A stretch of 64,000 nucleotides of DNA from Escherichia phage DCP80: sequence record PQ671644.1; one strand, written 5' to 3'. Shown here in pieces: positions 26,585 to 57,243 of this stretch. Position 1 is the stretch's first letter. Every line of letters begins with the position of its first letter. The position numbers and the translations under genes are program-made. Below the pieces are notes generated by a model. It was not told the origin of the DNA. It saw only the letters and a list, made by a program, of their open reading frames with translations, and ran no database searches.

Positions 26585-26620
26585 TTTATTCTCCAGTAGT
26601 TGATAGAGTCATTATAACAT

Positions 26621-26644: not shown

Positions 26645-26652
26645 TTGTTCAC

Positions 26653-26955
26653 TTACGCCAACTCATAGTTGTGCATAGTCAGACAACGAATTTTCCCAGT
26701 AGTTGGGTGCATAACAGTCACACTAATTGTGTAATCATCACACACGTTAACAAAAGGTTCAGCGATAACATATACTGCCCCACCCGCCAACAGGTATTCA
26801 CGAAGAGAGCTGCGAACAGATGAAGGTTGAACATCGCTTTTGAGCTTTATTAATTTACCAGTTTGAATGCCTGATGCGATAAGAGCAGCACAGTTTTCAT
26901 CACGGCGAGCGAATTGTCCAAAATAGTAACGATTCATGTCGGTTTGATTAAACAT
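26653..26955 (-). CDS. hypothetical protein
   Basis: 100-aa ORF. Confidence 0.45.
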   Translation of the reverse strand: MFNQTDMNRYYFGQFARRDENCAALIASGIQTGKLIKLKSDVQPSSVRSSLREYLLAGGAVYVIAEPFVNVCDDYTISVTVMHPTTGKIRCLTMHNYELA

Positions 26956-27033
26956 ATGGTTTTCCTTTTAACAGTTGGTTTATTGTGTAACTCAGTATGA
27001 AATCATTATGTCCTAAGACAAGGGGCTTGTACA

Positions 27034-27282
27034 CTATTTTAATTCATTAATTAAATGAAAATCTTGTGCATTGAAAGTAATGAAAAAATAATCATTCCCT
27101 TCAACTGAAGCATGACAGGCAACACTACACCAGCGCCTTGCTCTGTTCAAGGAGCAATCCAAAATTTTAAAAGGCTTCAGACCAACAATGGCAGCTGTTC
27201 TTTTATTATGCTCACAAATATCAGCATACTTTTGGAGAGCTTCTTCAGATTTGAACTGGTAATGCACATTAACTAATAACAT
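27034..27282 (-). CDS. hypothetical protein
   Basis: 82-aa ORF, Cys-rich. Confidence 0.45.
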   Translation of the reverse strand: MLLVNVHYQFKSEEALQKYADICEHNKRTAAIVGLKPFKILDCSLNRARRWCSVACHASVEGNDYFFITFNAQDFHLINELK

Positions 27283-27347
27283 TTTATTATCCTCATCAGT
27301 AGTTGATGGGATAATAGTACACCCTTTTTATGGTGATGTAAACCTCT

Positions 27348-27376
27348 AAAATGAAAAAGACCCGAAGGGTCTTTAG
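27348..27376 (-). terminator. rho-independent terminator with UUCG tetraloop after gene 41
   Basis: Minus strand AAAGACCC-TTCG-GGTCTTT then TTCATTT; overlaps gp41 stop. Confidence 0.5.
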
Positions 27377-28812
27377 AATTTCATTTGAGCAGCAAGGTCG
27401 TCCAGGTCGCTCCTGTTGACCCTGGTTTGTCTATTCATTTCAGCCTGGCGATTCATCTCACCGGTGGCTTCTTTAACCGTAGGGCCTTGTTTAGGAGCTG
27501 AATCATCATCAACCTCGTACCAGCGCTGATTACCTTTCTTAACACCCATCTTGAATTTATTATAGTAGTTCTTATCGCCATAACGAGACTTAAGCTGTTT
27601 GATTAACTGCAGACCCATTTGAGCGAATTCTTCAGTCTCAACAACACCCAACATAAAGTCGGCCGTGTGAGCAATACCAAAGGATTCTGCGATGTCAGCC
27701 ATATCAATCTCAGCTGCAACGTTCGCGCCCCTGGTTGTCTGTGCTGCAGTCCACAGGACCACATTTTTCTCAACAGCCAGACCACGAAGTTCTTCTGCAA
27801 CCATCTTAATCAGGCCGTAACTGTTTTCGGTAAACGTTTTCAGTCTTGAGCTTGCACAGATTGCCAGGTAGTCAACAATAATCACATCCGGCACAAACCC
27901 TTGCTTCAGTTTGTATTCATTCAATAATGCACGGAAGGTATCTGCATGAGCACCGCCAGTTGGATATTGTTTTATCTTCAGAGTCCCAAGAGTCCCTGAT
28001 GCCCGCCATTTTTCCATCTTAGCTTTGTATTCTGCCCATGATATATGACCTTCATCAATATCATCCAGAGACACATCCAGCAAGTTGGCATCAATACGTT
28101 TGGCACATACTTCTTCAGCCATTTCCATGCTTATATAAAGCACGTTATGACCAGTCTGAAGATAGTCGGCCGCTAACGAACAAAGTCCCAGAGATTTCCC
28201 GACGTTTGTCCCGGCCAGTAAAACGTTCTCTGTGCCGTACTCAACTCCACCCTTCGTAATTTTATTCAGGATGTTAATACGGAACGGAACCTTCTTCGAT
28301 TTGTTCAGATAAGTCTGGAATCGAGCTTCGTAATCGTTTAACCAGTCATGGCCCAGTGCAGAGTCAAAACAGATAGACAATGCATCGCGCATGATATCAG
28401 GGATAGCACCAATATCTGGGATTCGTTTATCACGTTTATCTTTCGGAAGTTCGGCATTACTCTGGATTTCGATAATCCTGGATGTGGCATTGAACATCGC
28501 AGACTTCTGTACATACTTCTCGGTTTCTCTAACCAACCATTCCTGGTCTTCTGGAGTATCAGCCAGAACTCCTAAGAGTTTCTTTGTGCCTTCATATTCG
28601 ACTTCAGAAAGGTCAGAACTGTCAAGCGCAATATCAAGTGCAGTCTTAGTTGGTACCGCTTGATATTCTTTTACGTGTTCGTTAATCGTATTAAAAAGGG
28701 TCTTTGCAGGACCCTTTTCAAAATATGTGTTATTCAGATATGGCCAGACTTTAACAAAATATTCCTTGTTAAAGAGTAGCTGGGATAAAATAGTTTCTAC
28801 CACTTCCACCAC
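27373..28812 (-). CDS. 41: replicative DNA helicase gp41 (DnaB-like)
   Basis: 479 aa; Walker A GTNVGKS, Walker B IIVDYL, ...LGTLKIKQYPTGGA..., RecA-like C-terminal domain; matches recalled T4 gp41. Confidence 0.9.
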   Translation of the reverse strand: MVEVVETILSQLLFNKEYFVKVWPYLNNTYFEKGPAKTLFNTINEHVKEYQAVPTKTALDIALDSSDLSEVEYEGTKKLLGVLADTPEDQEWLVRETEKYVQKSAMFNATSRIIEIQSNAELPKDKRDKRIPDIGAIPDIMRDALSICFDSALGHDWLNDYEARFQTYLNKSKKVPFRINILNKITKGGVEYGTENVLLAGTNVGKSLGLCSLAADYLQTGHNVLYISMEMAEEVCAKRIDANLLDVSLDDIDEGHISWAEYKAKMEKWRASGTLGTLKIKQYPTGGAHADTFRALLNEYKLKQGFVPDVIIVDYLAICASSRLKTFTENSYGLIKMVAEELRGLAVEKNVVLWTAAQTTRGANVAAEIDMADIAESFGIAHTADFMLGVVETEEFAQMGLQLIKQLKSRYGDKNYYNKFKMGVKKGNQRWYEVDDDSAPKQGPTVKEATGEMNRQAEMNRQTRVNRSDLDDLAAQMKF

Positions 28813-29141
28813 CTCTTTTTCATTTTAATTTTATCAATTTCATCTTGTATTTGCATTGTAACACACTTTTCTACATGCACTGCAAGCTCCGCTTTGCGGT
28901 CTTCAGAAGGGGTGCCGAAATCAACTGAAACTTTTCCAGATGGTTCAATTTTAATTCCGGTTACGTACACAATGTGACTGGACCCATCAGGGAGTGATAA
29001 CAGAATTTCCTGCCGTACAGTTCCCATGGATTGCCGGATAATCTCCAAACTTTTTTCGTAGTAAGGTACAGAAGGAGCCTTAGCTCCCTCCGCATCTTTC
29101 TCGAAATTATCTAAATCAGATAAATCGATATCATTCATCAA
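28797..29141 (-). CDS. 40: gp40-like protein
   Basis: 114-aa ORF between uvsX and 41 with overlapping junctions; synteny-based. Confidence 0.55.
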   Translation of the reverse strand: MMNDIDLSDLDNFEKDAEGAKAPSVPYYEKSLEIIRQSMGTVRQEILLSLPDGSSHIVYVTGIKIEPSGKVSVDFGTPSEDRKAELAVHVEKCVTMQIQDEIDKIKMKKRWWKW

Positions 29142-30309
29142 GGTCTTCCATCATATCTAAATCGTTTTCGATATCTGCCGCAGACGGTTTTGTCTTACCT
29201 TCAGGAGCAGTGTATTTTTCAACCTTGGAGGCAATAAGCGCATCAACTTCGGCATCAACAACAGCATTGCTATCGATTGCACCCAGTTGGTAATGGCGTT
29301 TGATTGCATCACGGAAAGGTTCGTGCTTGAACAGCGGGCCCCAGAATTCGGTGCAGTTAGTATCTTTTGCGCGCCATGATTTTTCTTCGCGGACCATTTC
29401 ACCGGTCTCAACATCAAGATATTCACGGTTATACCAACCAACTTTTGGTTTCACCACAAATCCGATTTCCATTGCCATATCAAGCAGGCCAGAATACGGG
29501 TCAATCCCACCATCGAATTTTACATCAATGAAGAATTTACTTTTCTCTTTGACCATACGAGATTTTTCGGCGTTCAGAACAAATTGGAAGCCTTCAAGTT
29601 CTTTACCAGTTTCTTTAATCTGGCGTTTGCCGATAATGAATACGGTGTCCGCAGAATACATAACACCTGTACCGCCGGTCATAACGGTTTTACTGTACAT
29701 CTCAATCGTCTCGATTGTATGGTTAACCGCGACACAAGGAATATCCTTGATGCTAAAATACGGGGTAACAATACGGAACAGAGATTTCAGGGATTTGGCA
29801 CGAGTCATATCACCAACGACTTTTTCGTTCATCGCATCTTCTGTTTCTTTTTTCGACGCCATGTTACCGATTGAGTCAATAAAAATAATGACTTTTTCAC
29901 CACGCTCAATTGCTTCAAGCTGGTTAACCATATCAACTTTCAATTGTTCAACCGACTGGATTGGTGTATGGATAACACGTTCCGGGTCAACTTTCATTGC
30001 ACGAAGATATGCTTCTGTGATACCAAATTCTGAATCATAGAACAAACAGATTGCATCGGGGTATTTGTTCATATATGCAGAGACCATCGTTAAACCCATA
30101 TTGGATTTAAAGTGTTTTGACGGACCAGCAAAAATAGTCAAACCTGACTGCATACCACCATCTAGTGCACCGCTGATTGCAATGTTCAGCATCGGGATTT
30201 TTGTACGAACTACATCTTTACCATTAAAGAACTTGGACTTGGTAAGAGTCGCGGTCATTTTGGATGTAGAAGCTTTAATCAAACGGGATTTCAAATCTGC
30301 AATAGACAT
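29131..30309 (-). CDS. uvsX: recombinase UvsX (RecA-like)
   Basis: 392 aa; LKSRLIKASTSK...KIPMLNIAISGALDGGMQSGLTIFAGPSKHFKSN...LFYDSEFGIT...MVREEKSWRAKDTNCTEFWGPLFKHEPFRDAIKRHYQLG matches recalled T4 UvsX. Confidence 0.9.
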   Translation of the reverse strand: MSIADLKSRLIKASTSKMTATLTKSKFFNGKDVVRTKIPMLNIAISGALDGGMQSGLTIFAGPSKHFKSNMGLTMVSAYMNKYPDAICLFYDSEFGITEAYLRAMKVDPERVIHTPIQSVEQLKVDMVNQLEAIERGEKVIIFIDSIGNMASKKETEDAMNEKVVGDMTRAKSLKSLFRIVTPYFSIKDIPCVAVNHTIETIEMYSKTVMTGGTGVMYSADTVFIIGKRQIKETGKELEGFQFVLNAEKSRMVKEKSKFFIDVKFDGGIDPYSGLLDMAMEIGFVVKPKVGWYNREYLDVETGEMVREEKSWRAKDTNCTEFWGPLFKHEPFRDAIKRHYQLGAIDSNAVVDAEVDALIASKVEKYTAPEGKTKPSAADIENDLDMMEDLDE

Positions 30310-30886: not shown

Positions 30887-30940
30887 NNNNNNNNNNNNNN
30901 NNNNNNNNNNNNNNNNNNNNNNNNNNNNNNNNNNNNNNNN
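30887..30940. other. assembly gap (N-run)
   Basis: 54 Ns. Confidence 0.95.
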
Positions 30941-36510: not shown

Positions 36511-36520
36511 NNNNNNNNNN
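36511..36520. other. assembly gap (N-run)
   Basis: 10 Ns; cuts gene 34. Confidence 0.95.
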
Positions 36521-41759: not shown

Positions 41760-41800
41760 NNNNNNNNNNNNNNNNNNNNNNNNNNNNNNNNNNNNNNNNN
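41760..41800. other. assembly gap (N-run)
   Basis: 41 Ns. Confidence 0.95.
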
Positions 41801-41818
41801 TGGGTCAAAACAAACATA

Positions 41819-42178
41819 TTAACCTCGCTTCATGAAGGCATTAAAAATCTGGTCATCAATATCAGTAGGCGGTTCTTGAGCTTTGACCCAAGCCCCTTCC
41901 AGAATGTCATTTGCTTCAGTAGATATCATGACCCCAATTTCAGGGTTTCCGGTTATCCATACTGCACAATCGCGGACATTCTTTTTATCAAATGGATAAC
42001 CACGATTATCTTCACAAGGCCCATTCATTGTCATAAATGAACGAGCCTTTATGATAACATCATCTTTAACGATAATATAACCAATCGCCTGATTATAACG
42101 AGGCTCACGAAATTCATAGTGAGCATTACCATTATTATTGCTCACCAGTTCAAAATTCAGAAAATTATAATAACTCAT
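41819..42178 (-). CDS. hypothetical protein with shared C-terminal module (copy 2)
   Basis: 119 aa, homolog of 24912-25271. Confidence 0.5.
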   Translation of the reverse strand: MSYYNFLNFELVSNNNGNAHYEFREPRYNQAIGYIIVKDDVIIKARSFMTMNGPCEDNRGYPFDKKNVRDCAVWITGNPEIGVMISTEANDILEGAWVKAQEPPTDIDDQIFNAFMKRG

Positions 42179-42179
42179 A

Positions 42180-42620
42180 TTAATCTCGCTTCATGAAGGC
42201 ATTAAAAATTTGGTCGTCAACTGAATATACAGGGGTTTCCAGAAGTTTCAAAAGACTGTTTTTAATGTACTTACCCGGGATACCCATATTAACAATACTG
42301 TCATTCAATTCATTATCAGGGTTGATGTCTTTAAATTCAAACCCATCAAATTCAACCTTGTCAGGAATACCATCAGCGAAAAAATAAACCAATTGGTGCA
42401 TTGTATTGCGCGAAAATAATTTAGACTTGACCGCAATAAGTTCTTGCCAATGGTTTAATTCTTTGTTAAGAAGTTTATGAGCAAACGTAATTCTATTATC
42501 ACTATCAACAAGAAAATAACCCAGGTATTGAATGGGTTCGTCGCTCCAAAACATCCTGTATGCTTGTGCATTTTGATTTTTACAACGAAGTTTTTTGATA
42601 ACTAGAGTTCTGTTAATCAT
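42180..42620 (-). CDS. hypothetical protein with shared C-terminal module (copy 2)
   Basis: Homolog of 25273-25707 with two in-frame indels (DEPIQY vs DEIQY; VNMGIPG vs VKGIPG). Confidence 0.5.
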   Translation of the reverse strand: MINRTLVIKKLRCKNQNAQAYRMFWSDEPIQYLGYFLVDSDNRITFAHKLLNKELNHWQELIAVKSKLFSRNTMHQLVYFFADGIPDKVEFDGFEFKDINPDNELNDSIVNMGIPGKYIKNSLLKLLETPVYSVDDQIFNAFMKRD

Positions 42621-42621
42621 T

Positions 42622-42915
42622 TTATTCACCTGTAACCCATTGAACAATCTTGCTGTTGTCAAATGAAGCATCGCAATACAGAACATAGTTATACTGCATA
42701 ACATCACCAGAAGTCAATTGGTCAGATACTTCTTTAACCATATCAGGACGGTCACGTTTAGTAATATTCATGATGTCAGCATAAATCTGATGTTCAACAT
42801 CAGCCTGGTCAGCAGTCATGGACCACTCGCAAAGGTCTTTATCAAGTCCAGCAGTAACTGGAGCTGTGCCACATGATGCTACGGTAAGAATTGCTGCGAT
42901 TAATAACTTTTTCAT
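42622..42915 (-). CDS. sp: Spackle-like periplasmic protein (copy 2)
   Basis: 97 aa, homolog of 25709-26002. Confidence 0.6.
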   Translation of the reverse strand: MKKLLIAAILTVASCGTAPVTAGLDKDLCEWSMTADQADVEHQIYADIMNITKRDRPDMVKEVSDQLTSGDVMQYNYVLYCDASFDNSKIVQWVTGE

Positions 42916-42973
42916 TTCAATCTCCTCAGTAGTTGATAGGGATAATATACTGCATTATCCCTATGTTGTACAC

Positions 42974-43177
42974 TTATTTTTCGTTAGAACGATAATCATA
43001 TTCAAAAACTTTATTGTCATTAACAAAGGCTTTAACCAGTGCATTATTCACTTCTGCATACTGCACTGTAATCCATTCAATCATATTTTTGTCACTGACA
43101 TCTAGCGCGGTTTCTTTGGTAAACATATTACCATTTTCAAACCAACCAATAAACACTACGTTCTCTAATTTATACAT
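42974..43177 (-). CDS. dmd: Dmd-like antitoxin (copy 2)
   Basis: 67 aa, homolog of 26063-26266. Confidence 0.5.
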   Translation of the reverse strand: MYKLENVVFIGWFENGNMFTKETALDVSDKNMIEWITVQYAEVNNALVKAFVNDNKVFEYDYRSNEK

Positions 43178-43495
43178 TTAGATTTCCTCACAAAACGCCC
43201 AGGCGGCGTGATAAACTGTTGCACCTTTAGTGTCATTTAAACAAACCACGTCAACAGGTGCAATCACACGATAAAGACGGGGTTCTCCTCCATATGAGCG
43301 AGCTGCTCTTCCTGCATAGATACGCGCCAAACCAATATCTTCAGTAAAAAACACACGCCCTAAATTTTTCTTACGCCCAACTTCTGACAGAACACCAGTT
43401 GCATCAGGAGGACAAAGCATATTTTGGATTCCAGCATTAGAGCTTGAGCCATGATAATAAACTTTGTATTCTGCCTTGCAATCAATGGTTTTCAT
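43178..43495 (-). CDS. PARP-like-motif small protein (copy 2)
   Basis: 105 aa, identical in translation to 26267-26584. Confidence 0.35.
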   Translation of the reverse strand: MKTIDCKAEYKVYYHGSSSNAGIQNMLCPPDATGVLSEVGRKKNLGRVFFTEDIGLARIYAGRAARSYGGEPRLYRVIAPVDVVCLNDTKGATVYHAAWAFCEEI

Positions 43496-43563
43496 TTTAT
43501 TCTCCAGTAGTTGATAGGGTCATTATAACATAAGAAAAAGGGGCTTACAGCCCCTTTGTTCAC

Positions 43564-43866
43564 TTACGCCAACTCATAGTTGTGCATAGTCAGACAACGA
43601 ATTTTCCCAGTAGTTGGGTGCATAACAGTCACACTAATTGTGTAATCATCACACACGTTAACAAAAGGTTCGGCGATAACATATACTGCCCCACCTGCCA
43701 ACAGGTACTCACGAAGAGAGCTGCGAACAGATGAAGGTTGAACATCGCTTTTGAGCTTTATTAATTTACCAGTTTGAATGCCTGATGCGATAAGAGCAGC
43801 ACAGTTTTCATCACGGCGAGCGAACTGACCAAAATAGTAACGGTTCATATCGGTTTGATTAAACAT
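43564..43866 (-). CDS. hypothetical protein (copy 2)
   Basis: 100 aa, homolog of 26653-26955. Confidence 0.45.
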   Translation of the reverse strand: MFNQTDMNRYYFGQFARRDENCAALIASGIQTGKLIKLKSDVQPSSVRSSLREYLLAGGAVYVIAEPFVNVCDDYTISVTVMHPTTGKIRCLTMHNYELA

Positions 43867-43944
43867 ATGGTTTTCCTTTTAACAGTTGGTTTATTGTGTA
43901 ACTCAGTATGGAATCATTATGTCCTAAGACAAGGGGCTTGTACA

Positions 43945-44193
43945 CTATTTTAATTCATTAATTAAATGAAAATCTTGTGCATTGAAAGTAATGAAAAAAT
44001 AATCATTCCCTTCAACTGAAGCATGACAGGCAACACTACACCAGCGCCTTGCTCTGTTCAAGGAGCAATCCAAAATTTTAAAAGGCTTCAGACCAACAAT
44101 GGCAGCTGTTCTTTTATTATGCTCACAAATATCAGCATACTTTTGGAGAGCTTCTTCAGATTTGAACTGGTAATGCACATTAACTAATAACAT
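43945..44193 (-). CDS. hypothetical protein (copy 2)
   Basis: 82 aa, homolog of 27034-27282. Confidence 0.45.
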   Translation of the reverse strand: MLLVNVHYQFKSEEALQKYADICEHNKRTAAIVGLKPFKILDCSLNRARRWCSVACHASVEGNDYFFITFNAQDFHLINELK

Positions 44194-44281
44194 TTTATTA
44201 TCCTCATCAGTAGTTGATGGGATAATAGTACACCCTTTTTATGGTGATGTAAACCTCTAAATGAAAAAGACCCGAAGGTCT

Positions 44282-45721
44282 TTAGAATTTCATTTGAGCA
44301 GCAAGGTCGTCCAGGTCGCTCCTGTTGACCCTGGTTTGTCTATTCATTTCAGCCTGACGATTCATCTCACCGGTGGCTTCTTTAACCGTAGGGCCTTGTT
44401 TAGGAGCTGAATCATCATCAACCTCGTACCAGCGCTGATTACCTTTCTTAACACCCATCTTGAATTTATTATAGTAGTTCTTATCGCCATAACGAGACTT
44501 AAGCTGTTTGATTAACTGTAGTCCCATTTGAGCGAATTCTTCGGTCTCAACAACACCCAACATAAAGTCGGCCGTGTGAGCAATACCAAAGGATTCTGCG
44601 ATGTCAGCCATATCAATCTCAGCTGCAACGTTCGCACCCCTGGTTGTCTGCGCTGCAGTCCACAGGACTACATTTTTCTCAACAGCCAGACCACGAAGTT
44701 CTTCTGCAACCATCTTAATCAGGCCGTAACTGTTTTCGGTAAACGTTTTCAGTCTTGAGCTTGCACAGATTGCCAGGTAGTCAACAATAATCACATCCGG
44801 CACAAACCCTTGCTTCAGTTTGTATTCATTCAATAATGCACGGAAGGTATCTGCATGAGCGCCGCCAGTTGGATATTGTTTTATCTTCAGAGTCCCAAGA
44901 GTCCCGGAAGCACGCCACTTTTCCATCTTAGCTTTATATTCCGCCCATGATATATGACCTTCATCAATATCATCCAGAGATACATCCAGCAAGTTGGCAT
45001 CAATACGTTTGGCACATACTTCTTCAGCCATTTCCATGCTTATATAAAGAACATTATGACCAGTCTGAAGATAGTCAGCAGCTAACGAACAAAGTCCAAG
45101 AGATTTACCGACGTTTGTCCCGGCCAGTAAAACGTTCTCTGTACCGTACTCAACCCCACCCTTTGTGATTTTATTCAGGATGTTAATACGGAACGGAACC
45201 TTCTTCGATTTGTTCAGATAAGTCTGGAATCGAGCTTCGTAATCGTTTAACCAGTCATGGCCCAGAGCAGAGTCAAAACAGATAGACAATGCATCGCGCA
45301 TGATGTCGGGGATAGCACCAATATCCGGGATTCGTTTATCACGTTTATCTTTCGGAAGTTCGGCATTACTCTGGATTTCGATAATCCTGGATGTGGCATT
45401 GAACATCGCAGACTTCTGCACATACTTCTCGGTTTCTTTAACCAACCATTCCTGGTCTTCTGGAGTATCGGCCAGGACTCCTAAGAGTTTCTTTGTGCCT
45501 TCATATTCGACTTCAGAAAGGTCAGAACTGTCGAGCGCGATATCAAGTGCAGTCTTAGTTGGTACCGCTTGATATTCTTTTACGTGTTCGTTAATCGTAT
45601 TAAAAAGAGTCTTCGCGGGACCCTTTTCAAAATATGTGTTATTCAGATACGGCCAGACTTTAACAAAATATTCCTTGTTAAAGAGTAGCTGGGATAAAAT
45701 AGTTTCTACCACTTCCACCAC
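44282..45721 (-). CDS. 41: replicative DNA helicase gp41 (copy 2)
   Basis: 479 aa, near-identical to 27373-28812. Confidence 0.9.
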   Translation of the reverse strand: MVEVVETILSQLLFNKEYFVKVWPYLNNTYFEKGPAKTLFNTINEHVKEYQAVPTKTALDIALDSSDLSEVEYEGTKKLLGVLADTPEDQEWLVKETEKYVQKSAMFNATSRIIEIQSNAELPKDKRDKRIPDIGAIPDIMRDALSICFDSALGHDWLNDYEARFQTYLNKSKKVPFRINILNKITKGGVEYGTENVLLAGTNVGKSLGLCSLAADYLQTGHNVLYISMEMAEEVCAKRIDANLLDVSLDDIDEGHISWAEYKAKMEKWRASGTLGTLKIKQYPTGGAHADTFRALLNEYKLKQGFVPDVIIVDYLAICASSRLKTFTENSYGLIKMVAEELRGLAVEKNVVLWTAAQTTRGANVAAEIDMADIAESFGIAHTADFMLGVVETEEFAQMGLQLIKQLKSRYGDKNYYNKFKMGVKKGNQRWYEVDDDSAPKQGPTVKEATGEMNRQAEMNRQTRVNRSDLDDLAAQMKF

Positions 45722-46050
45722 CTCTTTTTCATTTTAATTTTATCAATTTCATCTTGTATTTGCATTGTAACACACTTTTCTACATGCACAGCAAGCTCCG
45801 CTTTGCGGTCTTCAGAAGGGGTGCCGAAATCAACTGAAACTTTTCCAGATGGTTCAATTTTAATTCCGGTTACGTACACAATGTGACTGGACCCATCAGG
45901 GAGTGATAACAGAATTTCCTGTCGTACGGTTCCCATGGATTGCCGGATAATCTCCAAACTTTTTTCGTAGTAAGGTACAGAAGGAGCCTTAGCTCCCTCC
46001 GCATCTTTCTCGAAATTATCTAAATCAGATAAATCGATATCATTCATCAA
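45706..46050 (-). CDS. 40: gp40-like protein (copy 2)
   Basis: 114 aa, identical in translation to 28797-29141. Confidence 0.55.
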   Translation of the reverse strand: MMNDIDLSDLDNFEKDAEGAKAPSVPYYEKSLEIIRQSMGTVRQEILLSLPDGSSHIVYVTGIKIEPSGKVSVDFGTPSEDRKAELAVHVEKCVTMQIQDEIDKIKMKKRWWKW

Positions 46051-47030
46051 GGTCTTCCATCATATCTAAATCGTTTTCGATATCTGCCGCAGACGGTTTT
46101 GTCTTACCTTCAGGAGCAGTGTATTTTTCAACCTTGGAGGCAATAAGCGCATCAACTTCGGCATCAACAACAGCATTGCTATCGATTGCACCCAGCTGGT
46201 AATGGCGTTTGATTGCGTCACGGAAAGGTTCGTGCTTGAACAACGGGCCCCAGAATTCGGTGCAGTTAGTATCTTTTGCGCGCCATGATTTTTCTTCGCG
46301 GACCATTTCACCGGTCTCAACATCAAGATATTCACGGTTATACCAACCAACTTTCGGTTTCACCACAAATCCGATTTCCATTGCCATATCAAGCAGGCCA
46401 GAATACGGGTCAATACCGCCATCGAATTTTACATCAATGAAGAATTTACTTTTCTCTTTGACCATACGAGATTTTTCGGCGTTCAGAACAAATTGGAAAC
46501 CTTCAAGTTCTTTACCAGTTTCTTTAATCTGGCGTTTGCCGATAATGAATACGGTGTCTGCGGAATACATAACACCTGTACCACCGGTCATAACGGTTTT
46601 GCTATACATCTCAATCGTCTCGATTGTATGGTTAACCGCGACACAAGGAATATCCTTGATGCTAAAATATGGAGTAACAATACGGAACAGAGATTTCAGG
46701 GATTTGGCACGAGTCATATCGCCAACAACTTTTTCGTTCATCGCATCTTCTGTTTCTTTTTTCGACGCCATGTTACCGATTGAGTCAATAAAGATAATGA
46801 CTTTTTCACCACGCTCAATTGCTTCAAGCTGGTTAACCATATCAACTTTCAATTGTTCAACCGACTGGATTGGTGTGTGGATAACACGTTCCGGGTCAAC
46901 TTTCATTGCACGAAGATAGGCTTCTGTGATACCAAATTCTGAATCATAGAACAAACAGATTGCATCGGGGTATTTGTTCATATATGCAGAGACCATCGTT
47001 AAACCCATATTGGATTTAAAGTGTTTTGAC
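46040..47030 (-). CDS. uvsX: recombinase UvsX (copy 2), 5' end lost in gap
   Basis: C-terminal ~330 aa, near-identical to the 29131-30309 copy. Confidence 0.85.
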
Positions 47031-47080
47031 NNNNNNNNNNNNNNNNNNNNNNNNNNNNNNNNNNNNNNNNNNNNNNNNNN
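47031..47080. other. assembly gap (N-run)
   Basis: 50 Ns. Confidence 0.95.
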
Positions 47081-47136
47081 ACGCAACCTCATGTTCGTTT
47101 AATTGAACGTCATCATCAAAGAGACTTACAGCCATT
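47081..47136 (-). CDS. 62: gp62 clamp loader small subunit, first 18 codons only
   Basis: Minus strand MAVSLFDDDVQLNEHEVA, ATG overlapping gp44 stop. Confidence 0.5.
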
Positions 47137-48085
47137 TCATTTCCCCAGCCAGTTGAGCAAACAGATAAGTCAAGTGAACTTCGGTATTGGCCGCAATGCC
47201 ATGATACTGATTGTTCTCACCTACAATCTCATACATGCGGATGATACTTGCACCAGTCAGTTTGCCATACATTTCATCAGCCAGCTTTGCAATGAAGCTT
47301 GAATAATCATTTGCATGTTTAGGAGCCAGACCACGAAGAACTTTAAAGTTACGGTCTTTAAGGGCATCAATCACATCATCAATTGGCGTGCGATTGTTTG
47401 TCACGATACTCAGAATACCAGAATCGATAACACCCTTTGCAGAGTAACGGTCAAGCTCGTTAATTGTCTTACGCAGGTCCGGGAAGTTATGCTTAACCAG
47501 AGCAGCAACAACTTTCAGGTCTTCGATTTCAACGCCTTCGTTTTTACATACCGCAACTGCACGATGAATCATCTCTTTCATCATGGTAGTCTGGTCAGCC
47601 GGAGTTGCTTCACCGAACTTAATGACGCGACAACGAGACTGCAACGGAGTGATAATGCCATCGATATTGTTCGCGGTCATAATGATTGAACAGTTGCTCG
47701 AATAAGCTTCCATAAAGCTACGAAGATGCCGTTGTGATTCGGCCAGACCTGCACGGTCAAACTCATCGATAACGATTACCTTACGGCGACCTTCGATTGA
47801 TTTGGATGATGCAAAGCGAGTCAATTCATTACGCACAAAGTCAATTCGACAATCGGAGCCGTTAACAAACAGCATATCAGAATTCGTATCTGCGCACATA
47901 GCTTTTGCAACTGTTGTCTTACCAGTACCAGGGGAACTACTGACCAGAATCAAGTTAGGAATCAAACCTTTTTTAACAATCGCCTCTAATGTTTCTTTAT
48001 CATGAGCCGGGAGAATACACTCTGATAATGTACCTGGGCGGTATTTTTGTTCCCACATGAATTCTTTGTCATTAACCGTTAACAT
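47126..48085 (-). CDS. 44: clamp loader large subunit gp44 (copy 2)
   Basis: 319 aa, one substitution relative to 23361-24320. Confidence 0.9.
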   Translation of the reverse strand: MLTVNDKEFMWEQKYRPGTLSECILPAHDKETLEAIVKKGLIPNLILVSSSPGTGKTTVAKAMCADTNSDMLFVNGSDCRIDFVRNELTRFASSKSIEGRRKVIVIDEFDRAGLAESQRHLRSFMEAYSSNCSIIMTANNIDGIITPLQSRCRVIKFGEATPADQTTMMKEMIHRAVAVCKNEGVEIEDLKVVAALVKHNFPDLRKTINELDRYSAKGVIDSGILSIVTNNRTPIDDVIDALKDRNFKVLRGLAPKHANDYSSFIAKLADEMYGKLTGASIIRMYEIVGENNQYHGIAANTEVHLTYLFAQLAGEMKWL

Positions 48086-48141
48086 ATATTTTCCTCATAT
48101 TAGTTTCTACTTTGTACTCCATGGGGCCGAAGCCCCATTTA

Positions 48142-48837
48142 TTAATCTTGGAATTCGTGGCTAGAGCCTTGTTCCATTGCAATCACATAGCTTGCTTGTG
48201 TGCCTTCAAACTTCGTAGCAAATTTATCATCTTTCGCCCAAAGCATAACACGGTAATCAGCCGGAATCATTTTCATGTTCAGTTTGTTAATGATAAATTT
48301 AAACGCTGCATCACCTTCGTAATCGCCACACACCAGGGAATACAATGGACGCGCCAATTCTTTATCTTCGAGCTGGTTATAACCATGGATAACAATCTTA
48401 CCGTCTTTGTTGGTGATTGCAAAAGTATCCAGAGACAAACCACCAGCCACACGCAGAAGCTGCTGCAGGTCACTGCCTTTCAGGTCGAAGATAACCTTAG
48501 CTACCGGGAAAGGAATCTTCTTAGCAGGGAACACGATAGTGCTCGGGTCAGCCGCAGGCCAGTGAATCGTTGAACGTTGGTCTTTGATAATGATATTTGA
48601 TGCGTCTTCAGCCAGAGATACTTCAGCTTGGTCAGTTACCAGGCCCAGGATACTTAAGAAGCCGTTCAGGTCATAAATCGCAGCTTCAAAGTCAATTGTA
48701 TCATTGATTTCGGATTCGCCATATGACGCTCCAGTTACAGAACGAGTCAGGATGGTATTACCCGGCTTAAGCATAATGCCAGAGTAAATGGAGGTGAAAT
48801 TTTTCAATACCGCGATTGTGTCCTTTGAGAATTTCAT
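48142..48837 (-). CDS. 45: sliding clamp gp45 (copy 2)
   Basis: 231 aa, same translation as 22609-23304. Confidence 0.9.
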   Translation of the reverse strand: MKFSKDTIAVLKNFTSIYSGIMLKPGNTILTRSVTGASYGESEINDTIDFEAAIYDLNGFLSILGLVTDQAEVSLAEDASNIIIKDQRSTIHWPAADPSTIVFPAKKIPFPVAKVIFDLKGSDLQQLLRVAGGLSLDTFAITNKDGKIVIHGYNQLEDKELARPLYSLVCGDYEGDAAFKFIINKLNMKMIPADYRVMLWAKDDKFATKFEGTQASYVIAMEQGSSHEFQD

Positions 48838-48902
48838 GTAATTACCTTTTATTCAATATTCAGTTAATGAGAATTAATTATACAACGTTTGTTAACAAGC
48901 AG

Positions 48903-49334
48903 TTAAGCAACAACTACCATTTGTTTGCGGATAGCTTCCGGAAGAGATTCAATATACTCTGGAAGTTGCGCAGCAATAATAGAACCAGCTTGCACCAGAT
49001 GGTCGTCCGAGTTAACACAATAATCATCTTCAAGACGTTCGGAACCATCACGGTCGATAACCAGTTTAGCACCAGCGGCCAGTGAATCATTGTAGTGATT
49101 ACGCATCAGTTCAATCCACTTATCAGATACATCAGTATCAATCACACCGTACAGCATGAATTTAATTTCTTGTGGCAGAGACTGCAGACGGGTAGCAGAT
49201 GCTTCATCACATGCCAGGACCCAGGATTTGCGAACACGGTTTTGGTTATGTGGGTTAGCGTCGGTGCGGATGGTTTTAACTTGGATATCTTTAGCAGTTA
49301 CGTTGTTCATAATATTCTCTCTATTCATTATCAA
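48903..49334 (-). CDS. hypothetical protein, RpbA-like by position (copy 2)
   Basis: 143 aa, homolog of 22147-22578. Confidence 0.4.
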   Translation of the reverse strand: MIMNRENIMNNVTAKDIQVKTIRTDANPHNQNRVRKSWVLACDEASATRLQSLPQEIKFMLYGVIDTDVSDKWIELMRNHYNDSLAAGAKLVIDRDGSERLEDDYCVNSDDHLVQAGSIIAAQLPEYIESLPEAIRKQMVVVA

Positions 49335-49586
49335 TTAATCAAAGTATTCATATGCGAACCAGGCATTGTGTCTGTTCGCGATTATTTTAACATATTCTTC
49401 GCCGAAAGCGTTTTGTAAGTCACGTTCAGTAACAAGGTGTTCATCTTTCGAAAAGGTATTAACTAACACATACCGTTTAATTTCAGGGACAGCCAGTAAA
49501 TGCTGCCCGGTTAAGAAGTCAGCCATAATAGCCTCTATTATAACATCCTTGTTTAAAGCATTATTCCATAACAGTGAATCGACCAA
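49335..49586 (-). CDS. hypothetical protein (copy 2)
   Basis: 83 aa, homolog of 21895-22146. Confidence 0.4.
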   Translation of the reverse strand: MVDSLLWNNALNKDVIIEAIMADFLTGQHLLAVPEIKRYVLVNTFSKDEHLVTERDLQNAFGEEYVKIIANRHNAWFAYEYFD

Positions 49587-51243
49587 CTTTTTTCATCTGG
49601 AGATGTTGCCCGTATGCTTCCGGGTCATGGTCTCGGTGACTGATAATAAAGATGTTGGTGTCTTCCAATTTGTTCAGGATGGTAGCAATTGCTTTAACAC
49701 CCTCTACATCCGTAGCCGAGTCAAAAACTTCGTCCAGAATCAAGGTGTTAATATTAACACCAGATACTTTCGCAGCAATATCACGCCATGTAAACAGCAA
49801 TGCAATATCGATACGAGCTTTTTCACCCTGGCTAAATGATGCATAGCTGAAGTCTTCACGTCCACGAGATTTAATCGTTTCGTTGAACTCTTCATCTAAC
49901 GTAAAACTATAATCAGCTTCCATAACTTTAAGATAAGCGTTTATCTGCTTATTAAAGATAGGAATATATTTCTTAATAATCGCACCCTTGATACCAGAAT
50001 CTTTCAACATATCCGTTAGGATACCACGTTGATATTTTTCCATCACAAGGTCAGATTTCTGTTTGACTATTTTATCAAGCTGGTCTTGAAGCATTTTAAT
50101 GTCTGCAGCATGGTCAATGAATTCTGACTTGGCTTGCTCGATTAATGCTTTAACCTTTTTAGCTTTTTCGACAGTCTGGACTAAGGTTTGTTTCTTGGTT
50201 TGAATGTCTTGAGCTATTGTACGCTGGTTTTGTCTTGCCTTGGTATACGCATCAAATTGCTCCTGAACAGCGTTCTGGCGAGCTTTATGGTTATCAGCTG
50301 ATACATTACATTCTTCAATCTTTGACTCAATCCTGGCGACAATAGGGTCTCCTGGATGCAACTGACTGGCACAAGTCTGACAGCAACCACCTTTCTCGTA
50401 CAGACCAACAACCTTTCGGTAATCGTCTATCTTCGATTTAATCAGGAATGATTCCTGCTTTAACTTCGTGAGTTCATGCTCAGGGTCTTCTCCCAAGATT
50501 ATCTCGGTCAGTCTTGTCGTTGCTTCTTCGATAGTCGTCTTGATTCCACGTGCTTCTGTGGCAAGTTCATCATACATCGTTTGCAGCCGCAACAGATTAT
50601 CACCTGATAATTTTCTTTGGCGGTCTTCGTTGTCCTGATAGATTTTAATCTGTTGAACAATACCATCATGCTGCACATCCATCACCTGGATTTGACTATT
50701 GACTTCGCGGATAAGAGATTTGTTCAGCTTATCCATATCGGCCAGTACAGAAACCTCTAAAAGGTCTTCGACAAGTTTTCTTCTTGCAGGAGTGGATAGG
50801 CCCATAAAAGGGGTATATCCAGCTGTGCCGAGTACGACAATCTGTTTGAAGCTTGCATAGGACATTCCGATAAGCTGTTCAAATTCCGCTTGGAAGTCTT
50901 TACTGCTGGCAGATTCATCAAGACGTTTACCGCCACAAGAGATTTCAAAAACATTGGGTTTTTGCCCGCGTTTGATATAGTATTCTTTTCCATCATATTC
51001 CATCCACAATTCAACGAGCATATCTTTTTTATTGCTCGAGTTAATCAGCTGGCCTTTCTTTACATCACGGAAAGGCTTACCGAACATAGCAAAGGTAACC
51101 GCTTCAAGGAACGTAGATTTCCCCGCGCCGTTCTTACCGGTGACCAGAGTTTTCTGGACTTTATCCAGTTCAACAGTAATCGGTTTGGCGCCAACCGACA
51201 TAATATTTTTATAGATAACTTTCTTAAGCTTAAAAGTCTTCAT
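49561..51243 (-). CDS. 46: recombination endonuclease subunit gp46 (copy 2)
   Basis: Start MKTFKLKK at 51243; near-identical to 20238-21920. Confidence 0.9.
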   Translation of the reverse strand: MKTFKLKKVIYKNIMSVGAKPITVELDKVQKTLVTGKNGAGKSTFLEAVTFAMFGKPFRDVKKGQLINSSNKKDMLVELWMEYDGKEYYIKRGQKPNVFEISCGGKRLDESASSKDFQAEFEQLIGMSYASFKQIVVLGTAGYTPFMGLSTPARRKLVEDLLEVSVLADMDKLNKSLIREVNSQIQVMDVQHDGIVQQIKIYQDNEDRQRKLSGDNLLRLQTMYDELATEARGIKTTIEEATTRLTEIILGEDPEHELTKLKQESFLIKSKIDDYRKVVGLYEKGGCCQTCASQLHPGDPIVARIESKIEECNVSADNHKARQNAVQEQFDAYTKARQNQRTIAQDIQTKKQTLVQTVEKAKKVKALIEQAKSEFIDHAADIKMLQDQLDKIVKQKSDLVMEKYQRGILTDMLKDSGIKGAIIKKYIPIFNKQINAYLKVMEADYSFTLDEEFNETIKSRGREDFSYASFSQGEKARIDIALLFTWRDIAAKVSGVNINTLILDEVFDSATDVEGVKAIATILNKLEDTNIFIISHRDHDPEAYGQHLQMKKVGRFTVME

Positions 51244-51493
51244 CGTAATAAGCATCCTTGATACATGATTCAGCCATATGGATTAATGCCTCTGGGGTAT
51301 CATCTTCCATTACATTAAAGCTAAATTCTACGGCCCAATCGGTGACTACATAGACTTTGATAAGTTGACCAGTTTCCCGGTCAGTGATAGCTTCAAACCA
51401 ATACTTAATAGTATTCGGTTGATTATCGTCGTCAACCACATCACATTCGCGGATATGCTCAAGCCCCGCTTCATTAAAATCATAAAGTCTCAT
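51230..51493 (-). CDS. hypothetical protein (copy 2)
   Basis: 87 aa, homolog of 19779-20042. Confidence 0.45.
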   Translation of the reverse strand: MRLYDFNEAGLEHIRECDVVDDDNQPNTIKYWFEAITDRETGQLIKVYVVTDWAVEFSFNVMEDDTPEALIHMAESCIKDAYYDEDF

Positions 51494-52285
51494 GGTTGCA
51501 CCTCAAGATATAATTTGTTGGCCAATGCTTTGAGAGCTTTTGATTCTTTCTCATTGGCGTCAGGTAATGCATCGATATATTCTGCCATCATATCTGTTAA
51601 GCGTTTTATGTCTAACTCTTCATCAGAGTCTGACGTATCAACACTGTTATCAACCTTATTGACAACACGCAATTCGTGCACACGCTTTTCTAATTCAGAT
51701 TCGAACTTGGTCAGGTCTTTATCGACTTTTTCTACAATAACACGGACTGATAAGTCTTTGAAGTCGTCGTAGTTAATAGTTTCGTTTGGATAAAAAATCT
51801 TCCGATGCCAGGTGGTTTCATTCGGAATAAATTTCATCTCTTCGGTTTCTGTATCAAATTCCCAGAATCCGCGCGGGTCATTCTCATCACCTGCTGTTAA
51901 TGTCCATGGCGTTCCTATGTACTTAACGTTCGCAGCTTCTGAAATGGTATGGAAGTGCCCAGACCAAACTTGCTTGTACTTCTTAAGGAAATCAGGCTCA
52001 AGTCCGTGGGATTTCAATCCTTTATAGAAATAAAACCCGGTTAATTCCCAGTGACCGATGCAATATTCGGCACCAGAAGTTTTGATGTGTTGATGAATGT
52101 CAGTCGCGTTCTCGTCACACATCCATGGAATCATATCAATCTGACAACCGTCAAAATCAACAGTCGTTGGCTTATCGTAGATTTTAACATGGTCATACTT
52201 ATTCAGGAGTTCAGTGATAGCATTAGGATGAATCTTATTCTTCAGATTCATGTCATGGTTCCCGACTATCGTGTGCATAGTAATT
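51490..52285 (-). CDS. 47: recombination endonuclease subunit gp47 (copy 2), 5' end lost in gap
   Basis: From ...ITMHTIVGNHDMNL to stop, near-identical to 18763-19782. Confidence 0.85.
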
Positions 52286-52300
52286 NNNNNNNNNNNNNNN
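52286..52300. other. assembly gap (N-run)
   Basis: 15 Ns; joins gene 47 to an unrelated late-gene block. Confidence 0.95.
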
Positions 52301-53251: not shown

Positions 53252-56200
53252 TTAATTTAATTTAGCTTCAAGTTCTCTAACTTTAGCCGACAGGGTTTTA
53301 ACTGCTTCAATTAACAGAGCAACTTGTGCCTGAGTCGAAACTGTCAGAACCATATTTTCCTGCGAATCTAAAGACTCATGCACCGCTTCAGGTAATACTT
53401 CTTTAAGATTCTGAGCAATAACACCTGCTTCAGTTTGAACCGCTTCACCACCGATATATTCAGCTTTATCATAGATTAAACCGTCGAGCTGTTCAACCTT
53501 TTCAAGAGCATTTTCAATAGGCCTGAAGTTTGATTTCAAACGAATGTCAGAACGAATATAAACGTTTGGAGCATTTATATTTTTATATGAGTACAAATCA
53601 CCGTTTTGGAAACGGAAAGTCTGTACGCCATTCGCATATATGTCTAATAATCCATCGCCATTTTGCTTAATACCGGTATCACTATCGCCAATTGTTATAC
53701 TACTTCCACCGAGTGAGTTAGTTGTATTAACACCAAAGGCACTTGTTTGTGGCATCTGTACTTTACCCGGGCAATCTAAAATGCCATCCATTGTAAATCG
53801 CCATCTTGCTTGTTGGCCGTTAGCGTTATCTCCGCGAATACGAATAATACCTTCTCGCCAACCAGCTGTGGTACCAGAGCCGACCCATCCAAATTCAAAG
53901 GTTTGACGATATCCAGAGGAACCATAGTTGCTGTATGCACCTACAATAGGATAATAACTACCTGAATTAGATAAATCACCATGGTCTGCCATAAAGGTGA
54001 TTTTAGATTTCATTGTATCTGAGGTATCTCCCCAACCAGAGGCACCGCGCCAACCTGCAACCACACGAGACGAGATATTGCCTAAACTAGTATTACCACT
54101 GGTGACATTAAGGCCGCCCGCCACGTTCAGACCACCACCAGTAATATTCAGACCACTGCCCATGCCTACACGACCATCAGCCATGTTGATAGAGAAAGGT
54201 CTTAAGCCATTCCACAACCCGTCAGTTGCATTCGGGTTTTCTTCCGTGTTTTTATCCGTAACTAAAATATGAAAATTTTCACCGTCGTTTCTAATCAAAG
54301 CGGCATTAGAACCTATATCATTACCGCTGGATTTGATACGCATACCTTTTTGGTTATTGGTAACGTATTCACCACGTGTAACAATATCCGATTCGCCGGC
54401 AGCAAACATTCCGTCAATGTTGTTCAGCATTCTTACAGATTTACCTACAACATGACCTTCAGGTAATGTTTCTACCAAAGGCTGGACACCGCTATTAATA
54501 CCCACTACGGTTACTTTACTATTGCTACTGCATGTATATTCTACCGCCAAAGAATTAGAATACCCACCTAAGTAAACGTAAATATCATAGGTATCTTCGC
54601 TTGTATTAACAGAAGCAATCTGAGAAATAGCTTCAGAAGTTCTATTCCACAGCGTAGCATTAAGGCCTTTAGGGTTATTATTGCCGGTTCTAAGGACTAT
54701 TTCGGCTATTGAAGCCTGACCATAACTTTTAAAATTAAATCCAGAACCACCTGATATTTTAAAGGATGCTGTACCCGTCGCTTGTGGAATTTCTACAGTA
54801 GCAAATTTATACCAACCTGTAGTAGCGCCGCCAGCCCAACCGCCTGTGTTAACTTTACGGTCTAACGTTGTGTTCAGGTTTTTAAAGTTATCTAATGCAG
54901 TGCTGCCTGTAATATTACCGTCAGGACCAATACGAACATCGGAACCAATTTTAAGTGCCTTGGTTATATCAACAGTATCAGAGTTTAATGCAATACCATG
55001 GGAGTATGTATAGTTATGTAAACGAACAACGTTGCCGCCGTCGCCAATACCGAGATACCATTTTGTAACATCTGCTTTACGTCCTTGGATAAAGTTGGAT
55101 GATGCCTGGGATGAAGCATTTACCACAATGGCATCAGAATCCATATTAACACGCAGTCTACAGTCGGTCTGGACAAATTTACTTACGTTGTCTACTGTAA
55201 AAAGTGGACCATACCCGGCACTTTTATTCCCCATTATAACCGTGCCGGTGGCTAAATTGATAGATAGCGGACGAAGGTCACTTATTCCACCATTTTCTCC
55301 AGCGTTCTGAAGAGTAGGAATAAGATGGAATGAAGCAGAAGAACCTGTTTCTGAACGACGGAAAATCATACCATATTCGGCATTCCAAATTCTTAATGCA
55401 TCAGCGGTACCGCCTATTTTAACTTGACCGTTAAAAGTGGCGCCACCATTTATATTCAATCCGTTTGCTGAAGTGATACTACCTTCCGATGAAATACTAC
55501 CAGCAGTAGTCAATCCACCATTTACACGGAATTGAATAGAACCTACGGTTTGGGAACTTGTGGGAGCAACGCGTTGTGAATAAAAATGCCAACCCTGTCC
55601 ATCGCCTAATTCAAATACAGTTTCTCTGCTTTTATTAGTGTCATCCTCAAATGCGTTACCCCATACTTTCATGGTCACATAGCTTTTGTTCTGACCCGGG
55701 CGGGTGCCTGCGTTCCAAACAATCGTTTTTGTGCCATTGATAGTGGAAGAAGCGCCGAACTTTATACCTTTATTGTTGTTGTTAGTATTAAAAAATAATT
55801 CGTTATCTAATTTAACTGGTTGGGTCGAGGAAACTGTGCCATCGGCTCTAAGATTCAGTTCATTAACCCCGGTTTTAATATTCAAAATACCTGGTTCAAT
55901 AATCATGCCTTCTGCCATAGAAATGGCTACACGACCTGTACCACGGAAATAATGATAAAGTTTACCATTAGAATTATAACCTAAATGGGTTTGGCCATCC
56001 CCAGAGTTATTACCGTCTATTTCGGTTCTAATAGAAACCATAGAAGAGTTCTGGCCAGGCAGAAGCCAAGTAAGACCTTGGTCATTACTACGGCCAAATA
56101 TGGTTTTACTAGTCCCACGGAAGCCGTCGGAAGTAATAGATGCAACGGAATAACCTCCACCAACTAAATCATAAACACCTTGCTTAATATATTTCAGACC

Positions 56201-57004
56201 GGTTACAGTGTCACCGAGAACAAGATACTTATCGCCCATTACACCGACGTTACCATAATCACTAGACGGGAAACCCGTAGTGAATGTACCTAATGCAAGG
56301 CTATTACGGCCTGCCATTCGTCCGTCATTACGAATGCCATATTGTTTAGATGATGGAGTATTACCTGTCCACCATGACATTTCATCAGCTTGACCTGTCT
56401 GGGCGGTGCAAAGCTCATGCCACATAGTGCCACCAGACTTGGCGCGAACTTTACGAAGATAGTTTACACCATTCGTTTCGCCTGTGCCTGGGTATACATA
56501 ATTAACTAATGAATCTGTATCATATACACCAAAGGCTTTGCCACCGTGGATAACTGTATCGACTGCAATGCGTTTAGTTACTAATGAATCTGATGCTAAA
56601 ATACGGTTGGCCTGAAATTCACCACCATTTATAGAACGGAAATAGAATTCACTATTAGCAGTACCTTCTGTCCCCTGTTTAATCCTAATGCGTAATTCAC
56701 CAGCATTTGTAGTTTGAGGACGTGCATATATAACACCGCGTTCACTGCCATCAGCATTTTCAAACCATAAATGGGCATTTGATGTTGTATCGTTTGAAGC
56801 TCTTGAATAAAACGAGCCTTGCAACGCTCTAAAAGTTTGAGCCGAAATACTAGTGCCTGCTGTAATCGACCCGCTTGTAGAAAAGTTTCCAAAATTGTTT
56901 AATGGGCCGTTAATGCGTAAAGTTCCATTAATAGTTACATCCCCGTCAACCTGCCCACCTTTAGCAAAGCCCAAATCAATAATCTGTCCCTGGTCTGACT
57001 TAGT
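53252..57004 (-). CDS. 37: long tail fiber distal subunit gp37, N-terminus lost in gap, with C-terminal intramolecular-chaperone-like domain
   Basis: About 1250 aa of continuous frame; long beta-rich fiber repeats; C-terminus [17 protein letters not shown]...[11 protein letters not shown]...[19 protein letters not shown] resembles self-cleaving peptidase S74 chaperone modules; synteny 37-38-t. Confidence 0.8.
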
Positions 57005-57040
57005 NNNNNNNNNNNNNNNNNNNNNNNNNNNNNNNNNNNN
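57005..57040. other. assembly gap (N-run)
   Basis: 36 Ns. Confidence 0.95.
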
Positions 57041-57056
57041 GCGGAAAGGGGGTGTT

Positions 57057-57224
57057 ATGAAAACATTCAAAGATTTTATCAACGAAGATATGGTTGCAGG
57101 TGATGCAGGTGGAAACCCAACTAATATCACAACAGGTACCACTTCCGGGGCAGTTGTCAATAAAGGCCCTGAACAAATCCCATCAAAAAAGCGTAAGAAC
57201 AAAGACGATAAACCTACAGTATAA
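57057..57224 (+). CDS. small basic protein with N-terminal capsid-targeting-like sequence (candidate internal protein)
   Basis: 55 aa; AAGGGGG RBS; MKTFKDFINE resembles the T4 internal-protein CTS MKTYQEFIAE with an I-x-E cleavage motif; C-terminus KKRKNKDDKPTV. Confidence 0.45.
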   Translation: MKTFKDFINEDMVAGDAGGNPTNITTGTTSGAVVNKGPEQIPSKKRKNKDDKPTV

Positions 57225-57226
57225 TG

Positions 57227-57243
57227 GTCCTTCGGGGCCATTG
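57227..57243 (+). promoter_or_regulatory. UUCG tetraloop hairpin upstream of gene 61
   Basis: TGGTCC-TTCG-GGGCCA (one G-U pair), no U-run, 12 nt before the gene 61 RBS. Confidence 0.35.

Follow-up and report, generated by a model that had tools for sequence, protein, structure and literature searches.

The 64,000-nt stretch of Escherichia phage DCP80 (PQ671644.1) analyzed here, hereafter the window, contains two versions of a small gene that differ from each other by in-frame indels, and each version lies within a longer block of sequence which occurs twice. This raises the question of what the two versions are: paralogs within one phage genome, products of sequencing or assembly error, or alleles from different phages. 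An earlier note on this DNA had taken the blocks to be duplicated, and had argued from the absence of frameshifts and stops that both haplotypes are functional genomes under selection. In order to answer the question, we compared the copies with each other, with cultured phages and with metagenomic assemblies, and we analyzed the blocks in which they lie.

The two copies of the target gene differ by two one-codon indels

The copies of the target gene, and the indels between them, are located as follows.

42180-42620, minus strand: target gene copy 2, 146 aa, a homologue of SP18_gp036 (phrog_8539), carrying SDEPIQY and SIVNMGIPG
25273-25707, minus strand: target gene copy 1, 144 aa, carrying SDEIQY and SIVKGIPG
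42534-42536, minus strand: indel 1, CCC on the gene strand (GGG on the plus strand), an in-phase additional Pro29 in copy 2
42286-42288, minus strand: indel 2, an out-of-phase TAT (gene strand), with AAG (K) in one copy vs AAT ATG (NM) in the other

Both copies were translated, and the reading frame of copy 2 runs from an ATG at 42620 to a stop at 42180. The two pairs of peptides by which the earlier note had described the difference are present exactly as quoted. Its sizing of the indels as one and two codons stands in its first part only, as both events are 3 nt in length and thus one codon each. By nucleotide alignment the copies are 14 substituted positions and two 3-nt gaps apart, and an exact-identity run of 161 nt is located between indel 1 and indel 2.

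The window is a list of contigs

Self-comparison of the window by BLAST gave three pairs of repeats at 95-97% identity.

2833-8993 vs 10925-17790: repeat pair 1, inverted
18987-24365 vs 47081-52285: repeat pair 2, inverted
24894-30121 vs 41801-47030: repeat pair 3, direct

Every break in collinearity coincides with one of ten N runs (10-54 nt), which divide the window into 11 contigs.

8994-9040, 17791-17800, 24743-24760, 30887-30940 and 36511-36520: N runs
41760-41800, 47031-47080, 52286-52300, 57005-57040 and 61506-61540: N runs

From the first contig to the last, the lengths fall strictly (8993, 8750, 6942, 6126, 5570, 5239, 5230, 5205, 4704, 4465 and 2460+ nt). Because of the N runs and these strictly falling lengths, the window is an assembler's sorted contig list with spacers and not one molecule. 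Mapping to Shigella phage SP18 (Gaprivervirus, 170.6 kb) showed each contig to be collinear internally with that genome, while the order and orientation between contigs are scrambled. Identity to SP18 was 87-100%, with the exception of contig 9 (gp37 tail-fibre region) at 73%. The contigs that make up the repeat pairs are the following.

1-8993: contig 1, ndd-denB-rIIB-rIIA region, overlapping contig 2 in opposite orientation
9041-17790: contig 2, allelic partner of contig 1
17801-24742: contig 3, allelic partner of contig 8
24761-30886: contig 4, gp61.x-sp-dmd-gp41-gp40-uvsX region, equivalent to SP18 17493-23364
41801-47030: contig 7, alternative branch of contig 4, equivalent to SP18 17626-22856, flanked by the N runs 41760-41800 and 47031-47080
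47081-52285: contig 8, gp44-gp45-rpbA-gp46-gp47 region, with both ends sharing exactly 111 nt with contig 3

Each repeated block ends on either side in a run of perfect identity, which is exactly 111 nt long in all six cases. In contigs 1 and 2 each 3' end shares such a run with the partner (8883-8993 vs 10925-11035; 17680-17790 vs 2833-2943), and the runs at the two ends of contig 7, 41801-41911 and 46920-47030, are equal to 24894-25004 and 30011-30121 in contig 4. For the remaining contig ends, no match to any other contig was found. At bubbles in a de Bruijn graph, alternative branches become separate contigs with identical ends of length k. The fixed overlap of 111 nt at the branch points therefore indicates a de Bruijn assembly with k or k-1 equal to 111. 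Together with the N borders, the fixed ends indicate that the copies represent each genomic interval by two alleles from a mixed population. Thus, the framing of these sequences as duplicated blocks was mistaken: each is a contig of its own between N runs, and the pairs are allelic branches of an assembly graph. Since the window is a concatenation of allelic contigs, its long-range repeats, palindromes, duplications and synteny breaks are artefacts. The practical value of this result is chiefly that the window must not be taken as one genome.

Outside the repeated blocks, contig 9 (52301-57004) carries the gene for the distal subunit of the long tail fibre (gp37-like, phrog_1699), which aligns only in part with SP18 gp37, at ~73% identity. 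An ORF listed at 53252-57241 on the minus strand (1329 aa) crosses the N gap at 57005-57040, and the true gene is cut by the contig end; the 5' end of this ORF is an artefact because it crosses the gap. The flanks of the last N gap (61374-61784, the end of contig 10 and the start of contig 11) did not match SP18 when the window was mapped by blastn.

Both alleles recur in cultured phages and in metagenomes

As a substitute for the read-level phasing proposed in the earlier note, we looked for the alleles in other sequences, and searched both proteins by tblastn against 50,697 phage records. The copy 1 protein has a 100% match in Escherichia phage P896 (duck sewage, China), and the copy 2 protein has 100% matches in Shigella phage SP18 and Escherichia phage 212. 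At the nucleotide level, copy 2 is identical to SP18 18005-18445 (441/441 nt) and copy 1 agrees with P896 at 433 of 435 nt. In an alignment with nine isolates, the additional proline is common only to copy 2, SP18 and 212. The K state is common only to copy 1 and P896, the sole isolate of the nine-phage panel with the NM-to-K deletion, and the rest have NM and no proline. Because the +Pro and K states segregate by lineage, the two indels are independent derived events on two lineages. By the alignment, +Pro is a derived insertion of the SP18/212 lineage and NM-to-K is a derived deletion of the P896 lineage.

SP18 (NC_014595) shares with the window the copy 2 allele, SP18_gp036, in both its +Pro and NM states, as well as the gene neighborhood (gp41, dmd, sp, gp036, gp035, gp61). 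It differs in overall identity, which is 99.0% for contig 7 and 87-97% for the other contigs. Escherichia phage 212 likewise has the +Pro and the 146-aa protein of copy 2. P896 (OL451225) encodes the copy 1 protein as UHS65254, but contig 4 overall is 98.0-98.5% identical to this phage.

The alleles were also found beyond these isolates. The exact 144-aa protein is encoded on nine contigs: one is P896, one is from an ENA metagenome, and seven are Logan assemblies of SRA runs, of which six are among the matches listed and one is a similar place. Four contigs, which include three further metagenome/SRA assemblies, encode the exact 146-aa protein. In comparisons with metagenome and SRA contigs, which covered about 1.4-2.2 kb, contig 7 was 99.8-99.9% identical to two independent SRA-derived contigs over ~2 kb, and contig 4 was 99.3-99.4% identical to two other independent contigs carrying the same allele as itself. 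A 34-mer of the K allele had no exact match in viral_contigs, genome_contigs or metagenome_contigs, and a 32-mer of the +Pro allele had none in viral_contigs, the only collection scanned with it.

The best matches of the six contigs searched (1-4, 7 and 8) are Gaprivervirus isolates at 95-99% identity, and by these matches, as by the collinearity with SP18, the window is genomic DNA of Gaprivervirus (Tevenvirinae, Straboviridae). The other duplicated contigs have mosaic best matches, at 95-97.5%, to various Gaprivervirus isolates, and the best-matching isolate shifts between contigs among SP18, P896, 212, TH44 and TH57. The alleles of the target gene were already known, as both occur in GenBank isolates, and they are ordinary strain-level diversity of a known genus.

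Strains assembled together most probably account for the two haplotypes

We are highly confident that the window consists of length-sorted, N-joined contigs of a de Bruijn assembly that contained at least two Gaprivervirus strains, and that the copies are alleles. A sample holding at least two close strains of this genus (T4-like, Straboviridae) would have been assembled from short reads by means of a de Bruijn graph. Where the strains differ, the assembler would have written the alleles as separate contigs, with 111 identical bases shared at the branch points. Strain-level de Bruijn bubbles of mixed viral populations have k-length identical ends and 5-9 kb fragmentation, as is found in the window, which differs from them in nothing of kind. 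The alleles of the target gene would have acquired their two 3-nt indels independently, one on the SP18/212 lineage and one on the P896 lineage. These indels would be tolerated in a predicted turn and a linker, while the gene stays under purifying selection. We infer that the sampled population held both strains in viable form. The co-assembly does not account for the variable length of the N runs, from 10 to 54.

An alternative is that the contigs are a chimeric consensus of more than two strains, in which case the haplotypes as written would never have been single genomes. Exact-identity runs longer than 111 nt, up to 385 nt, occur inside every block, among them the 161-nt run within the target gene. 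Because these runs exceed 111 nt, phase across each contig hinges on the assembler's use of read pairs. The change in best-matching isolate from contig to contig also favors a chimera, as does the divergence along the repeated blocks, which varies widely, from 0 to 57 mismatches per 200 nt. Nevertheless, a mosaic of best matches is also a normal outcome of recombination in T4-like phages, and the uneven divergence is consistent with a recombination mosaic. Additionally, the haplotypes of the target gene are equal to natural ones, with 0 and 2 nt differences, contig 7 is nearly identical over ~2 kb to contigs assembled independently, and no part of the window occurs in a third version. We thus regard a chimeric consensus as improbable, though some of the contigs could combine sequence from three or more strains.

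Genuine segmental duplications within one genome, that is, 5-6 kb repeats, some inverted and some direct, that are ~96% identical and whose paralogs diverge under selection, deserve very little credence. Such duplications would account for three large repeat pairs within 64 kb in the self-BLAST and for the fact that every gene is intact in both copies. However, each block border is an N run with no junction read through, the contigs are sorted by length, and the exact 111-nt overlaps at the six block ends are the signature of an assembler. The order of the segments is moreover scrambled with respect to SP18 and all other T4-type genomes examined, and queries from contigs 3 and 8 match one place per record in the cultured Gaprivervirus genomes examined. 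With no sequenced junction that joins the blocks on one molecule, duplication in one genome is effectively refuted. A foldback chimera on one molecule was considered as well, and was rejected.

The differences between the alleles bear the mark of purifying selection

To measure selection, we carried out the codon-aware alignment proposed in the earlier note and calculated dN/dS by the Nei-Gojobori method on 25 gene pairs annotated in SP18. The pooled pairs are under strong purifying selection, with a dS of 0.145, a dN of 0.010 and an omega of 0.07 (Fisher p = 2.6e-180), and per-gene omega ranges from 0 to 0.22 across all real gene pairs. For the target gene itself, Sd = 11 and Nd = 4, giving an omega of 0.08 (Fisher p = 4.5e-6). 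Third codon positions hold 426 of the 592 substitutions in aligned ORFs. As an internal negative control, spurious out-of-frame ORFs inside rIIA, rIIB and gp46 gave omega values of at least 1. No internal stop or frameshift was found in any of the 25 gene pairs, so that the claim of intact genes in both haplotypes was borne out.

The short indels follow the same division between coding and non-coding sequence. The short coding indels number three, of which the target gene has two and rIIB one; all are multiples of 3 nt, vs two of the six short non-coding indels, and the indels of 1-2 nt between copies are all intergenic. Clustering of differences at homopolymers, which the earlier note had named as evidence that would count against real divergence, was not seen in coding sequence, where none of the three indels is a change in homopolymer length. 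It is next to impossible that the indels and substitutions arose by error, whether of sequencing or of assembly, in redundant contigs from one strain: three 1-nt indels do lie in short homopolymers, but these fall between genes without exception, each coding indel is 3 nt long and not a homopolymer change, the ~4% divergence with a dN/dS of 0.07 and an excess at third positions is beyond what error can produce, and each allele recurs exactly or almost so in independent isolates and assemblies. Thus, the dN/dS values, the 3-nt coding indels and the presence of the alleles in independent isolates support real divergence between functional haplotypes under selection, as had been argued at the outset.

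The three intergenic 1-nt indels, at about 3167 (vs 17300), 27369 and 27351 (vs 44278 and 44261), are length changes of A, C and T runs of 3-4 nt. Two of the three lie in or beside a terminator-like hairpin 3' of gp41 (AAAGACCCTTCGGGTCTTT). These three homopolymer differences could be real or could be errors.

Other gene pairs and gene content

The remaining differences that the earlier note had listed, a one-codon length difference in rIIB and conservative substitutions in gp46 and rIIA, were found largely as described. The rIIB copies are 324 vs 325 aa, which is the net result of the internal codon V80 and of two added C-terminal residues in the other copy. Most changes in gp46 and rIIA are conservative, with BLOSUM62 scores of at least 0 for 9 of 11 substitutions between the gp46 copies and for 8 of 9 between the rIIA copies. 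The difference in annotated length of gp46 (564 vs 560 aa) is a mere choice of upstream ATG. The larger indels between copies are differences in gene content, examples of which are an HNH-endonuclease-like ORF and a 74-aa ORF, present in one haplotype each.

about 5902-5904, minus strand: one-codon indel in rIIB (GTC, Val80), present in contig 1 and missing from contig 2
14747-15238, plus strand: HNH-endonuclease-like ORF, 163 aa, 3' of rIIB in contig 2 only and without counterpart in contig 1 (phrog_374, E = 8e-59)
20017-20241, plus strand: 74-aa ORF (phrog_2327, unknown function), found in contig 3 alone, where it lies between gp46.2 and gp46

The HNH ORF is probably a homing-endonuclease presence/absence polymorphism. 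The 74-aa ORF sits within a 209-nt insertion of contig 3 that is missing from both contig 8 and SP18. Taken together, the window represents two co-occurring Gaprivervirus genotypes separated by ~3-5% sequence difference and a few mobile or accessory genes, with purifying selection throughout. Such a pattern of divergence is the one expected for T4-like phages.

Several smaller features were noted in these regions. The HNH ORF of contig 2 is linked with the differing 3' end of rIIB. Contig 2 has 157 nt more than contig 1 at ~17317-17474 (at ~2992 in contig 1). This extra sequence in the ndd.x region opens with a TGAGGATAATA… motif, as does the sequence after it, which suggests a tandem duplication or an additional small ORF. 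Lastly, an 82-aa ORF homologous to SP18_gp041 (27034-27282 vs 43945-44193) has the same nucleotide sequence in both haplotypes, and its neighbors differ synonymously.

The target protein belongs to a narrow family with length-variable sites

The target gene is a small early gene located directly downstream of spackle (sp) and upstream of the primase gene cluster. Its protein matches phrog_8539, a family of unknown function, over its full length (E = 3.4e-91, residues 1-146 vs profile positions 1-145 of 145), and a Pfam search returned no match. The family is narrow: our search gave 35 clusters, all but one of which are at least 72% identical, with one distant. Full-length members are 143-148 aa in length, and both indel sites fall in length-variable parts of the family alignment.

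An AlphaFold2 model of the target protein, built from 18 shallow sequences, reached a mean pLDDT of 69, which is of medium confidence. In this model a β-rich N-terminal domain (residues 1-100, pLDDT 71-87) is followed by a low-confidence linker (103-129) and then by a short C-terminal helix (134-143). Pro29 is placed in a predicted turn of a β-hairpin, between strands 19-25 and 31-38, while N111 and M112 fall in the low-confidence linker. Because one site is in a predicted hairpin turn and the other in a flexible linker, changes in length by one residue would be tolerated there, and we infer from the model that these loops accommodate the indels.

A C-terminal tail is shared across the slot downstream of spackle

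The gene downstream of the target gene encodes a protein of 119 aa, which has only a C-terminal tail in common with it. The two copies of this neighbor and the positions of the tail are listed below.

41819-42178, minus strand: downstream neighbor copy 2, 119 aa, a homologue of SP18_gp035 (phrog_4122), dN/dS 0.19
24912-25271, minus strand: downstream neighbor copy 1
42176-42220, minus strand: 45-nt shared tail, …DDQIFNAFMKRD, followed by the stop and the ATG of the next gene
41815-41859, 25269-25313 and 24908-24952: further copies of the tail in the window; in T4 (L013), 2133-2203

The last 15 residues of the target protein, …DDQIFNAFMKR(D/G) (DDQIFNAFMKRG/D), and the 45 nt that encode them recur where the adjacent 119-aa gene ends. 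A sigma-70 promoter and terminator scan and a search for local repeats around the target gene gave nothing specific except this 45-nt repeat. The tail also matches Pfam AdfA and phrog_3781, in each at the very C-terminus. In P0035, a distant family member, the body of the protein is highly diverged while the last 31 residues are nearly identical.

AdfA is anti-DarT factor A (Pfam PF23813), which counteracts the DarT toxin of the DarTG defence. In the strain table of a 2024 preprint, T4 gp61.2 is equated with adfA (PMC11257639). T4 gp61.2 occupies the same genomic slot as the target gene, immediately downstream of sp, and its C-terminus, SIDDQIFNAFMNRG, has the tail …DDQIFNAFM(K/N)R(G/D), with ~90% nucleotide identity over ~50 nt. 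The two proteins differ in that their bodies are unrelated, with BLASTP similarity confined to the last 15-60 residues. Membership of the target protein in the AdfA family was considered and set aside, as it has no Pfam match and BLASTP aligns it with T4 gp61.2 at the C-terminal end only. The 119-aa neighbor scored 21.7 bits against the AdfA profile (PF23813), below the 27-bit cut-off, over profile positions 198-211 of 211. An anti-DarT activity of the target protein cannot be inferred from these alignments.

The DNA of the tail is conserved across genera: it is ~90% identical among T4, JS98, VR26 and the window, and this identity extends to synonymous sites and to the TAATATG stop/start junction. 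With the tail repeat on either side, the 119-aa gene is a cassette that is present in some phages and absent in others. JS98 and VR26 are without this gene, and in both phages the tail of the gp036 homologue joins the same downstream gene directly. Judged by sequence, this is the arrangement that would be expected if recombination between tails inserts or deletes one cassette. We raise, tentatively and with more doubt than conviction, the broader possibility that the genes of the spackle-primase slot (T4 gp61.2/AdfA, phrog_8539 and phrog_4122) are modular cassettes in which unrelated N-terminal bodies are joined by a flexible linker to a common C-terminal helix (…DDQIFNAFMKRG), with the target gene as an alternative occupant of an anti-defence slot. 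The tail could be a putative recombination handle for the insertion, deletion or swapping of cassettes, a putative peptide or helix that binds a shared partner, or a putative cis signal for the downstream gene. Within the window, the shared tail across the AdfA slot is the sole element that might repay further work. The tail is present at 901 places in 706 phage records, nearly all of which are T-even-type by name.
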